Shown here in pieces: positions 13,421 to 23,208 of a stretch of 64,000 bases of DNA. A program made the position numbers and the translations under genes. The first letter of the stretch is position 1, and each line of letters begins with the position of its first letter. The DNA lies in the NCBI GenBank assembly GCA_039208735.1, contig JBCCQY010000004.1:71884-135883 (forward strand), read 5' to 3'. Origin of the DNA: Myxococcota bacterium (GTDB lineage Bacteria > Myxococcota_A > UBA796 > GCA-2862545). Under the pieces are notes generated by a model, which was not told where the DNA came from, made no database searches, and saw nothing but the letters and a program-made list of their open reading frames with translations.

Positions 13421-13540
13421 GACCATTTTGCCGAGTTCGCTGCACCGGTAGCAATCATGATTGGAAGTCCAAGGCTTTCGGCTAGCTCCTGGCCGAAAAG
13501 CGTCTTGACTGCAGTGCATCGGTTCACGGAGGCAACATGA
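13268..13540 (+). pseudogene. Truncated copy of the 5' end of the 24313-26781 lipoprotein gene; stop overlaps the RHS start
   Basis: LHLNVLMVWSGYLWGLLGCETSPEGPVE matches LRLNILMVWSGCFWGLLGCGTSPEEPVE. Similarity ends after IEG. ATGA overlap at 13537-13540. Confidence 0.7.
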
Positions 13541-22500: not shown

Positions 22501-23208
22501 GAAGGACATATCGGCTTTTCCGACCCGATAGCTGTTGAGGTTGAAGAAGTCGCATACCTGGGACTGACTGGGAATGCTACGGACAATACGTTCTTCGGCC
22601 CAATGGACATCATGGTCGGTGAGACGCCATCAATATGGTTGCCGCCCCGTACCTACCTAGGCATTTTAATTCAGCTGTCACAGGTGGAAGGTATCGAAGG
22701 CCTGGTCTATGACCGTTATGGAGACAAGGACTGGCCGTTATTCACGGAGGAAGAAGCCGAGATAATCGAGCGGCTGGAAGAGTTGGGCTCCCACCCGTTC
22801 GATCTTGAGGGAGGTGACTATTACGTTTACTACCATTGCTGTGATGACCTTGATCGACCAACGTATTGGGGGATAACAAGCCGGATTGGATGGCGAGTAA
22901 GCGAACATAAGGCCGACTGGTCGAAGCCTGGTCCGTGGATGATTATCGCGACATATCCGGTCAGCGAAAGGACGGCCTTGACCATTGAGGCGAAAATGAT
23001 TCGACTGCGAATTCGTGAGGCGATCGCCGCCGGATTTACGACGGAAAATCACTCAGTCAGGCATCAGTTGATCGCCGCTGGTTTGCTCAATAAGGATCGA
23101 GGGCTCGATCCGTCAAAGTGGAACTCTGCGACATTGCTCCACGTTCAGTGGAAGCAGGGACCCGTTTTCAATATCTCGAATCCTCAGTGGGACCTTATTG
23201 ACGATTGA
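13537..23208 (+). CDS. Giant lipoprotein TcB/TcC-like (SpvB + FG-GAP + YD/RHS) polymorphic toxin with C-terminal GIY-YIG-like nuclease
   Basis: Lipobox VAAC; DADGDGDIGCQDFDC; SpvB-like FEFPPAPNDLSPSVTV...VGQAFSL and WYPAVTLDPFGNAIQY; FG-GAP DLNGDALDD, DVNSDGLAD, DFDGDGFAD; many YDxxGR repeats; RHS core RLYDAQTGQFASPDPIG...NPVQFQDPIGW; tail YVY...YWGITSRIGWRVSEH...ALTIEAKMI...LLNK. RBS GGAGG. Confidence 0.92.
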   Translation: MTGRVLLLAWVAACHTPSSKPNGPESLDTGSMDEARTHALAGPVDPTGALPALTGSLDSEDTGGGCTTLLEAGWTEDVFSGTFVADQDGLYRFQVERSDVLLTLMDRCGGDELVEAETGEAIELRLLAGEPIVVRTSETTGLWVEAVEHAPLTVPEVTERVERISTGGRTCVTPETVVSELSWTLRGDAGDQNLLGMTSACSGEVVDAIVFDAPRAGEYVFDTAGTEFPSGVSAHPDACTDELACSEWGFGAEADDGSLQLSLDKGQRIVLAIHRQDQPSARDGDGYLLNIDLLADREQDCLLHRDADGDGDIGCQDFDCTAEPQCAAERSYAESADPSCLGSAACRKDWSAARRGRVAARELADLGRIQDKRRKAGVERKTQVSQQTPPNSPEGDPPTPPTPNGSHTYAKVLSWAGPDRAAPEPEWVIDDYAAMYMGGYPISMAFEFPPAPNDLSPSVTVNHNHRSGSREVGQAFSLTVPGPVLRTSEDGQPANHTATDRYTFDGVEFVPTSRGYEPRRRDGRVAVHDTQDNSWVLYYPSGTQTIYGTMSVGGPTRGAKVSLYEHGGRVQPDNGIYPTDAAMDDSFDDCDRYDGELCNTVAWYPAVTLDPFGNAIQYYWRKAALPNSTPSTDAYWWSDSRTHVIDHIQYGENLRERVQFEWQTRDTQRLSFSLGVPQYRTERLQAIEATSDGVFFSRYEFSYTGDDYLDRVEQTGPGGNPRQLVQSFEYSPSEPVTYGTAQSFGGAPFDLDQSTDFDFQTWNDEEHWAALHVVDLNGDALDDLIVEWHDRAATNGADHFQGYTGTYGGFSAWSGDAEYKLNELTTGLKADIDGDGCADTIDVETNTWTNCENEDHPLGFDDILWSDWETETGFTYAATGEFAHRPWHLVDVNSDGLADLVLNTFMRWEEATTCENLTACDRWLPRSHDPQGGDPSALTNAIVSRIYWGDGYGGFVDSGLEAGGPPLLMEAPRPANDATVERDRTLYSFWSLIPLNRRFRHLVASRAPSPGGGSFDLGFSQYEGEFSGFALSPYQVTLTEAMGDGIADVQHTHDYQAPSQVLGIDRTHQGDSCHEEGKLVAFGDFDGDGFADLVQLDTTARGVPDLSVRHSELTKVPGRLSKITYPNGGTVDLTWGFSASPTHSNPDLRQNLEVLESVTGPKGTVELRYGKGYTGPDGFGGFGVVEVKQRGILERFGYFTTPALAGQSLFRARYRSDGSLEQAEVSVYGTEPANGPRFLSINHDSAGDGESFFNPLVRFCQFENADETRDVDELMEFCWGIGLDNDYQPSRSSIYAVAGLWPAPPEAENPSSTDPAALAAAAWDRQRVDLNHLEQEGFENRFVVDGDSSWLPTGLTFADLANPAPDDVSYAALRSTESYENQRPTEAASDNSTTAYVTSYSYDAAIQRPTWEYQYRDWLTDDDDGTTETIFGAVGHADWPFLFRLETKRNYYGIGPVAPRSSSSWSGWSANSAFSRPTFETNCGKVPGSCSQVTRSFASNGEPTGETRHYADTPSPTYTRTFTDWCRDLTITNPVGEQTVVTMDGRCRPTRMVDGAGETGLDYLDTFGTDVREEKLSGAPLEPGMPAGTVHIRTTSSPSESRIFNETLGVLTTERLDGYGRPIAVERCASSNGHSCSGPMTSAYRGYSTDGDLVISAPPAFAGEPVVATRSTFDGAGREIIRDDPAANADMPIEYVPTYTYHWPGRTIDRGVVSVSDTVVSRIEWSTMGSSTWVENDLVHQSIDNADGQPIEKTEDGITAVFGYDASGLLSRKSMADSATSVRPDDTLAPMQWEQRFEYNDAGQVKAIIQPDNTRVASLYDAMGRNLEQVIYDDVGVLVATLSSTTYSRDAAGRQVEFHTDISGGWTETTFDGQGRVIRKKNSLDHVTLFHAPVAGGNGRAIHRTIRLDGALELEEERVLDAFGNDVEAAVPGQGTTTRTFDGQGRLLTEVDADGARLVWNPVYAHNGELLQEQLGDWVTARHEYDLSGRLTRSETVDGVVTLDYDHLDRIVQRRYGNPSSPDQSEHFTYDGTSERITGTAIHASGQPQSRQYQVEFDSWGRAWRTVGPTGVENFTYLDVMGRPRIAEDGTGYQRITRYDELGEVVFAESAGRNTLATQRVRSAGQTEVITTHADGTQERVELDFLGRPVLQLDAAGASRTFTYDGTRLVSTQMQGSNGDTVRMEFGYDAHGRQNLEEGPFDPTVANPLKPRTTYTYTAAGRQDTVSSDGMETDFDYGTLDGLPTFESYFGLEQETTYTSTTWGLGPQVDVVEVRPTGTTDERTTTFDYDHRGRVTSTLVQVPNGDSVLQTSQFDDWGQLASTRAETTTSGVTDTVETSLTYDTLGRLTRRRLRVNGTNEGMTRFGYLDNNQLSYYITPSGERIDYNYGPTFDHEIDSITHDGAVLFTVLTRDNVGRPLTVELDSGNVATQTYDAVGRPIERIERNGAQVEKRVLMAYDGLGRPISEAQTILGQTHTNTYTYYGPGYLKREVVGVDGSIHEYTVDAAGQRTATDVTVGGVTTTTNLTYANGLLATVGGNPIVRDPWLGIVNNHDGTTIERDASGAVRRITRGLLGLELLRDAQGLPVGRTVGSFGQRISHWNPGNHGAPPLEESLPSGQSLAFVEGPGATQRLLFNAAGTLMQSATLDYDASGSAASEDLSVVHHGTVFGAGGTAVPTTEDIISFAGMQAVPGSSSLHLARHRLYDAQTGQFASPDPIGLAGGRHRLLYANANPVQFQDPIGWTAEPFEAFCEEGPNPNAAVEEREPVRRGFGAATVEPPEPVESPSVEEMIGMPAAELPNAPLSFTRPIPMHCSPWSVGCKAENRRRKADWEAKTYVKPDAKARSEARTAARVNRVIERRIARADVRAERRHKPRKARAEKKVEGWSDAKVAAKKAKLEARLEAGTLGTRGQYLLAGAQAKWLENVKQAYETVMWHNVLAAMLPSSSALSQALTEAIEAKAMGPTEIVNQYRWNSPDFSGGGEADAFEGHIGFSDPIAVEVEEVAYLGLTGNATDNTFFGPMDIMVGETPSIWLPPRTYLGILIQLSQVEGIEGLVYDRYGDKDWPLFTEEEAEIIERLEELGSHPFDLEGGDYYVYYHCCDDLDRPTYWGITSRIGWRVSEHKADWSKPGPWMIIATYPVSERTALTIEAKMIRLRIREAIAAGFTTENHSVRHQLIAAGLLNKDRGLDPSKWNSATLLHVQWKQGPVFNISNPQWDLIDD

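Follow-up and report, generated by a model that had tools for sequence, protein, structure and literature searches.

The gene at positions 13537–23208 (+) of a 64,000-nucleotide stretch of a Myxococcota bacterium assembly (GCA_039208735.1, contig JBCCQY010000004.1; the whole stretch is called the window) encodes a 3223-residue protein, P0001, that is probably a lipid-anchored polymorphic toxin of the cell surface. Its self-cut tail would be held in a TcB/TcC-like shell, and a putative GIY-YIG DNase tip would pass to non-self neighbours on contact, without TcA or a type VI secretion system (T6SS). The frame is uninterrupted across all 3223 codons, and GGAGG, the putative ribosome-binding site, lies 5 nt upstream of the ATG. 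An earlier note on this DNA had named a VAAC lipobox, an SpvB/FG-GAP region, YD repeats, an RHS motif and GIY-YIG motifs, and each was found where the note had placed it. The features of the gene are listed below.

13537–23208 (+): whole gene, a lipoprotein-type SpvB/FG-GAP/YD/RHS toxin with a GIY-YIG-like tip, 3223 aa
13537–13578 (+): predicted signal for Sec and signal peptidase II (Sec/SPII), lipobox VAA-C14, His at +2 (from the sequence, the position mode in the genome and the clade lipoboxes)
13726–14574 (+), approximate: N-terminal stalk with PPC/galactose-binding-like beta domains (one or two), followed by a Cys-rich repeat of DxDxDG (TSP3-like) type
14575–14835 (+): low-complexity linker, basic and then Pro-rich (from the sequence)
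14848–15075 (+): SpvB-like start of the shell, aa 438–513 (Pfam on pieces)
15838–17142 (+): FG-GAP propeller region and TcdB_toxin_midN, aa ~768–1202 (Pfam)
18034–21516 (+), approximate borders: YD-repeat shell (TIGR01643, NF041261; PDB Rhs matches 7q97 and 8h8a)
21571–21765 (+): RHS core autoprotease motif with R2703, D2716 and D2739, predicted cut after W2743 (TIGR03696)
21766–22815 (+): pre-toxin part of the tail, with an acidic/Pro segment, a Cys pair, an Arg/Lys-rich patch (~22069–22221) and helices
22816–23205 (+): GIY-YIG (Tox-URI1-like) tip, 130 aa, with Y3098, Y3110, G3112, R3120, H3124, E3151 and N3185

Shell, predicted lipid anchor and tail

A Pfam scan of the whole protein returned RHS_repeat and FG-GAP only, and SpvB and TcdB_toxin_midN emerged when the protein was scanned in pieces. 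The midN match (aa 1079–1202) scored 29.4 bits against a cut-off of 24.8. The SpvB match (aa 438–513) had E = 2e-4 and 21.1 bits, slightly below the cut-off of 22; SpvB is above the cut-off in the homologue P0029 (23.4 bits) and in the paralogue on contig C153 (24 bits). YD repeats are present (TIGR01643, NF041261), and the closest solved structures by sequence are the Rhs proteins 7q97 and 8h8a. The stalk gave no Pfam match when scanned alone. Atlas assigned it at 0.96 to a cluster with GBD_T9SS_assoc at 34% and then to TSP_3 and PPC clusters, which serve as leads only. Its modules recur in other proteins of the genome (blastp: C3, C78) and are longer in the paralogues.

Export as a lipoprotein, which the earlier note had proposed, is supported by the lipobox pattern and its conservation. 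A regex survey of this genome places lipobox cysteines most often at positions 13–17, with 45 at position 14; Cys14 is early in the protein, yet within this peak range. The two nearest full-length homologues, P0027 (4203 aa) and P0028 (3776 aa), both start with a lipobox. The congeneric genome G494 contains five paralogous pieces, including a P0027-type gene, and all four with an intact start have a lipobox, which brings the count to six of six intact clade N-termini (query, P0028 and four from G494). In a quick, midpoint-rooted tree of 17 rows, two of them truncated, the lipoprotein shells form a single clade with a Shimodaira–Hasegawa-like approximate likelihood ratio (SH-aLRT) support of 100, separate from stalkless relatives with ordinary signal peptides. 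All 15 shell cysteines are invariant across P0001, P0027 and P0028 at ~33% identity, consistent with folding in an oxidising compartment. The clade-wide lipoboxes and the invariant cysteines thus support the predicted Sec export and lipidation at C14.

Shell homologues are patchy, occurring in 14 of the 151 genomes of the order, and they carry other tips: Ntox8/GHH-like, HNH-like, alpha/beta-hydrolase-like, REase-5 and REase-7, with weak matches for Ntox8 and the hydrolase. The HNH and GHH labels come from a reading of motifs. The hydrolase-like tip belongs to the paralogue L107. In P0027 (L042:8379–21005) two tandem Hint domains precede an Ntox8/GHH-like tip that seemingly lacks its last histidines. 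Genome G113 has six near-identical shell genes (L028–L033) with tips of the REase-5 or REase-7 type; a small open reading frame (ORF) lies downstream of each, and an orphan tip cassette follows at least two of the six. This genome (G000) contains three further giant RHS genes (C153:854–11344 (-), C3:131636–141779 (+) and C6:8238–17492 (-)). Two of these are of the SpvB type and have Hint-like segments, with small ORFs lying downstream, and the remaining one has a short hydrophobic tail; the C3 gene is split over two overlapping frames.

P0001 combines a lipobox-type signal peptide, identified by pattern and clade conservation, with SpvB, an FG-GAP propeller, and RHS repeats and core, and homologous shells bear varied tips, giving a constant N-terminal body and a variable C-terminal toxin. 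It has the architecture of the TcdB/TcaC-type polymorphic toxins and would work as they do, but it is neither a complete toxin–immunity system nor a Tc BC subunit or a teneurin-like protein (TLP).

The RHS core model TIGR03696 matched aa 2679–2742 with 46.9 bits against a cut-off of 32.5. D2716 lies in a DPIG motif and D2739 in PVQFQDPIGW, and R2703, D2716 and D2739 are invariant in P0001, P0027 and P0028. These three residues match the protease arrangement described for BiTLP in the available text of PMC13018210, which places the predicted cut after W2743 (nt 21765), in agreement with the site given in the earlier note. Self-cleavage at W2743, as read from these motifs, would release a 480-aa, 54-kDa tail ending in a 15-kDa tip.

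The pre-toxin part of the tail had no family match and no Hint domain. An Arg/Lys-rich patch (12–17 of 30 residues) recurs early in the cleaved tails of P0027, P0028, L106, L107, L028 and L030, and follows the Cys pair in the lipoprotein clade. The patch was considered as a nuclear-localisation signal for eukaryotic targets; this was rejected because a similar patch occurs in the G113 proteins that keep immunity genes. The available text of PMC7861908 places 97.9% of TcC tails within 201–400 aa. The 480-aa tail exceeds this usual cargo and paralogue tails reach 1051 aa, so the cocoon may hold only part of the tail, and the full enclosure of cargo assumed in the earlier note is doubtful.

The GIY-YIG tip

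A full HMMER search with the tail found 25 homologues, every one aligned to the last ~130 aa and located at its own C-terminal end; a word-index search with the tip gave no match. Nine of the 25 have a PT-HINT match and several have RHS repeats. Pfam GIY-YIG matches 20 of them at E ≤ 0.1, and five of these 20 pass the Pfam cut-off. The tail itself has no Pfam GIY-YIG match, and a hidden Markov model (HMM) built from the homologues with the query excluded recovered the query at E = 9e-25. The profile search proposed in the earlier note came out in part: RHS core and midN were above cut-off, SpvB was just under it, and GIY-YIG was found in the homologues and not in the query. The catalytic pattern Y, YxG, R, H, E, N is conserved in the tip as Y3098, Y3110/G3112, R3120, H3124, E3151 and N3185. 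A motif-shuffle control (0/20000) was given no weight, as its pattern was written after the sequence had been seen.

A model of the tip computed from a 26-row alignment had a predicted local distance difference test (pLDDT) value of 87.6; a single-sequence model reached only 30. The best structural matches of the model were I-TevI (Z = 5.1, root mean square deviation 2.7, 74 aligned residues), UvrC (Z = 5.0, root mean square deviation 2.0, 68 aligned residues), T4 EndoII and Slx1. GIY-YIG structures occupied ranks 1–7 in a wide fold search and ranks 1–9 with Foldseek. Atlas assigned the tip at 0.92 to clusters with GIY-YIG in 42% and 81% of their members. The tip is filed as GIY-YIG, Tox-URI1-like, and the model and the homologues make this identity well supported, in line with the ~480-aa tail with a GIY-YIG pattern and the structure prediction put forward in the earlier note. 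When alignment A1 was used to search the genome, Hint columns outweighed the rest and the tip of the window itself was not recovered, so this search is uninformative on the range of the tip.

Delivery partners and immunity

The premise of the earlier note that TcB–TcC shells normally need TcA or a T6SS is too narrow. A stand-alone class of signal-peptide, SpvB-propeller-RHS toxins, including ones with URI tips, appears in the main text of PMC3482391, and the available texts of PMC13018210 and PMC10433427 report Sec/SPII YD-shell toxins in Myxococcota and T6SS-independent Rhs4/5 in Myxococcus xanthus, respectively, which also speak against the premise. The note had found no TcA, VgrG or PAAR gene in the window, and none occurs among the 50 of 221 window ORFs that were scanned.

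The search for partners was extended to the genome, which is 92.7% complete, so that absences are not proven. TcA models PF03538 and PF18276 had no match; PF03538 had no positive control, and PF18276 matched in 6 of 201 genomes of the phylum and in three of five chosen relatives. TcdB_toxin_midC had no match in the genome and was positive in five of the eight genomes examined. No TssC sheath match was found, and no PAAR match at E ≤ 0.001; one weak PAAR-like ORF lies at an unlinked locus. The VgrG-like ORFs of the genome are short and unlinked, unlike the arrangement of a T6SS Rhs effector. With positive controls for PF18276 and midC, the absence of TcA, TcB-midC and TssC matches from this incomplete genome is in keeping with the independence from TcA and T6SS that the earlier note had envisaged. 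Outer-membrane exchange was rejected as a delivery route, since TraA (TIGR04566) had 0 matches in G000, G494 and G113 and matched in both Myxococcaceae control genomes; TIGR04201 matched nowhere, controls included.

Contigs C12, C55, C63, C128 and C208 of G000 carry sheath and gp25 genes together with short VgrG-like and weak PAAR-like ones, all unlinked, and these hint at two or three loci of extracellular contractile injection systems. Such genes are one reason to consider P0001 as cargo of the contractile injection systems, or as a genuine BC subunit that a TcA pentamer would deliver in trans. A second is G494, apparently the genome of L042 and congeneric, which has TcA on a short contig and no TcB-midC match, the exception to the pattern in the TcA-bearing relatives G113, G015 and G174, each with its own midC-positive TcB on the TcA contig. 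In the genome with the P0027-type gene, a TcA-like ORF (L108, 2608 aa) fills the short contig G492:C98 with no partner visible. Against delivery of this kind stand the pairing of TcA and TcB in the three relatives, the lack of a TcA match here with positive controls, the missing midC and a tail outside 201–400 aa. A lipobox and probable disulfides would fit poorly with cytoplasmic loading, and injection systems with an exported lipoprotein. Such delivery is very improbable.

The surface-toxin reading proposes that P0001 is exported by Sec and lipidated at C14, as predicted, and it would then be sorted to the outer membrane and displayed on its short PPC-like and Cys-rich stalk. The shell would fold after leaving the cytoplasm, and cutting after W2743 would fall to the RHS aspartyl protease, whose motif is observed. 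Contact would trigger the release of the 54-kDa tail, probably only partly enclosed, and the conserved acidic/Cys/basic pre-toxin segment is a speculative candidate for the entry module. The 15-kDa tip would cut target DNA, judging from its fold and residues in silico. In this scheme, display at the surface, release on contact and the choice of non-kin bacteria as targets are all putative.

The choice of target depends on immunity. In the metagenomes, one family of 95–131-aa ORFs directly follows the GIY-YIG tip at 13 of 13 loci (11 distinct). This candidate immunity family (L081–L093, alignment A4) starts with MxYWG...DYAFD and has no Pfam name; one of ten members matched DUF4259 at E = 0.06. 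A cognate tip–partner pair was predicted to bind with a score of 0.79 against 0.00 for the best control, using a mark that was reached by 116 of 157 solved pairs and 2 of 215 mismatched pairs. Contacts in the predicted complex agree to ≥98% and the partner pLDDT is ≥91. In P0001 this family does not follow the tip, and the kin discrimination suggested in the earlier note is doubtful for this copy on that account. If the tip does not fold until it has been exported, toxin delivered by kin would be the sole form against which the producer needs immunity, and the missing gene points to non-kin targets. Either the protein targets non-kin, or a local duplication has orphaned it.

Four clade members have a visible 3' context, a small sample, and a plausible linked cytoplasmic immunity ORF follows only one of them, L106. 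A secreted Cys-rich ORF lies downstream of the L042 toxin, and a DUF1330 gene downstream of the L107 toxin. The G113 shell genes each have a small downstream ORF, identified as Imm52 in the one scanned. These contexts allow a broader proposal, that the members of the clade are contact weapons encoded by a single gene, come without an immunity gene and act on prey or other non-kin cells. Export would shield the DNA of the producer, which would have no uptake route; the acidic/Cys/basic segment would carry varied enzymes into the target, and no TcA, T6SS or TraA would be needed. This extension to the whole clade is tentative and, taken in full, unlikely.

The absence of immunity is also expected if P0001 is a surface adhesin or extracellular enzyme platform, in which the shell serves as a stalk for a tip that acts outside cells, for example on extracellular DNA, with no need for delivery. 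The adhesion-type N-terminal modules, the hydrolase-like tip of L107 and a tail larger than the usual cargo agree with this. It is an improbable explanation: the autoprotease is intact, Hint domains precede the tips of paralogues, and the tip family is elsewhere tied to a partner that is predicted to bind it.

Several observations weigh against a working toxin aimed at non-kin. The genome is incomplete, as stated. The partner family had no match at the locus or elsewhere in the genome (best E 4.2), no co-oriented gene-like ORF follows the toxin stop, and a tightly linked small ORF accompanies each of the genome's two other SpvB-type RHS genes. The fold scores of the tip are modest, with 5.1 as the best Z and Foldseek E ≥ 0.25. 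The [RK]xxE motif of Tox-URI1 is absent from the tip, which has LxxE where 23 of the 25 homologues have RxxE, and the tip is an outlier of its family at 31–40% identity to the others compared with 50–58% between close members. Without the Arg of RxxE, the tip may be drifting. The gene lies in a stretch of lower GC within one copy of a decayed duplication, and the related-strain data described below span the shell and exclude the tip. The crossing of the target envelope is as unexplained here as it is for TLPs (PMC13018210, available text).

Many of these points are accommodated if P0001 belonged to an ordinary kin-directed toxin–immunity pair and lost its immunity gene on landing in, or being caught by, the duplication. 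The gene would then be silent, or the shell kept while the tip decays; alternatively, the immunity gene is unassembled or too diverged. The partner ORF at all 13 tip loci, the outlying tip without the RxxE Arg and the decayed duplicates that flank the gene argue for this, as does the third-position GC content (GC3), 0.56–0.66 in the toxin gene versus 0.77–0.83 in three housekeeping genes, suggesting acquisition. A 9.7-kb frame that has stayed intact with all seven core residues of the tip, mostly synonymous variation in the shell, and the recurring lack of an immunity ORF, with L106 the only plausible case among the four clade members, argue against it. On balance an orphaned pair is unlikely.

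The locus and related systems

The regions on either side of the toxin gene are described by two features.

13042–13540 (+): ~89% copy (to ~13420) of the stretch upstream of the lipoprotein gene at 24199–26781 and of that gene's first codons
23209–24086 (no strand assigned): ParD/RHH-like remnant (-) and decayed copy of the 3' end of gene 27012–28277

The truncated duplicate ORF upstream ends on the toxin start with an ATGA overlap. A longer, frameshifted gene starting from this upstream lipoprotein ORF was rejected, since that ORF is itself a shortened copy of the neighbour and the toxin comes with a ribosome-binding site and a lipobox of its own. The neighbour at 24199–26781 (+) is lipoprotein-type (WGLLGC); it has a metallopeptidase-like HELGH motif as well as Ca-binding RTX repeats. 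Positions 23731–24019 match 27007–27311 at 87%: the 3' end of the DUF5074-like gene 27012–28277 is repeated here in decayed form, and another short repeat lies near 30683–30798. An immunity gene could have been lost in the duplication event. The ParD/RHH antitoxin-like ORF at 23249–23581 (-) has weak Pfam matches and a related stretch on contig C149; being a remnant convergent with the toxin gene, it was rejected as the immunity gene.

Contigs from other sequencing data cover part of the gene. In run X1, possibly the source sample, a single contig is identical over 20336–24244 and another spans 13305–14859; the tip and the empty region downstream are thus no join artefact in the X1 assembly. 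The best-matching run is a marine metagenome. In a related strain, 10 of the 11 shell differences listed are synonymous (the full table has 25 further rows), which indicates that the shell is under selection. The tip was outside the coverage of run X2, which at that depth gives no evidence either way.

The TcdB/TcaC class comprises a signal peptide, SpvB and an integrin-like propeller with RHS repeats, and Tox-URI1 is listed with it (Zhang et al. 2012, PMC3482391). P0001 shares the signal peptide, SpvB, propeller, RHS and C-terminal toxin of this pathway, for which the main text lists delta-proteobacteria, and its paralogues have Hint domains. It differs in the lipobox and the PPC/Cys-rich stalk before SpvB, a case not found in the available text of PMC3482391 (Additional file 1 lies outside it), in having 3223 aa against a length peak of ~2200 aa and in having no immunity gene. 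Tc (ABC) BC subunits share SpvB, midN, propeller, YD shell and an RHS aspartyl protease that cuts after DPxG-X; P0001 differs in its lipobox signal peptide, its lack of TcA and midC matches and a 480-aa tail in place of 201–400 aa (PMC7861908, available text).

TLPs of Myxococcota are likewise predicted Sec/SPII lipoproteins with adhesion modules, a YD shell, RHS autocleavage and variable toxic C-termini, and are described in the available text of PMC13018210 with an FN-plug and NHL, tails of ~15 kDa and, in almost all cases, an immunity gene. P0001 has SpvB/FG-GAP, a 54-kDa tail and no immunity gene, and NHL had no match in the protein, with SpvB/FG-GAP/midN instead. The remaining comparisons rest on the available text of PMC10433427. 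M. xanthus Rhs4 and Rhs5 are comparable in being Rhs proteins of ~4000 aa that have signal sequences and kill independently of the T6SS; their role is in kin discrimination, and the comparison is by description and not by sequence. SitA toxins are myxobacterial lipoproteins with C-terminal nuclease tips that depend on TraA/B and have escort domains instead of an RHS shell, whereas the genome here has no TraA match.

The overall design is thus a known type of inter-bacterial weapon, and its novelty was at first overstated: toxins with a signal peptide, SpvB, propeller and RHS, including URI/GIY-YIG tips, were defined in 2012 (PMC3482391, main text). The apparently new part is the lipoprotein-anchored clade of TcB-type shells with swappable tips. 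It was not found in print in the literature searched, to which supplements and most subscription papers did not belong; proteins of this kind may already be listed in Additional file 1 of PMC3482391. The uncultured organism and the known overall design limit both surprise and testability. The analysis also yielded a GIY-YIG tip family and a conserved partner family with no Pfam name. Delivery of cargo by stand-alone RHS/YD shell toxins that have no injection machine is still to be explained, as the available text of PMC13018210 says for TLPs. The clade bears on this question: its shell is TcB-type with a predicted lipid anchor, its stalk is variable and its pre-toxin segment recurs, which makes it a natural comparison with the signal-peptidase-I-type relatives that keep their immunity genes.

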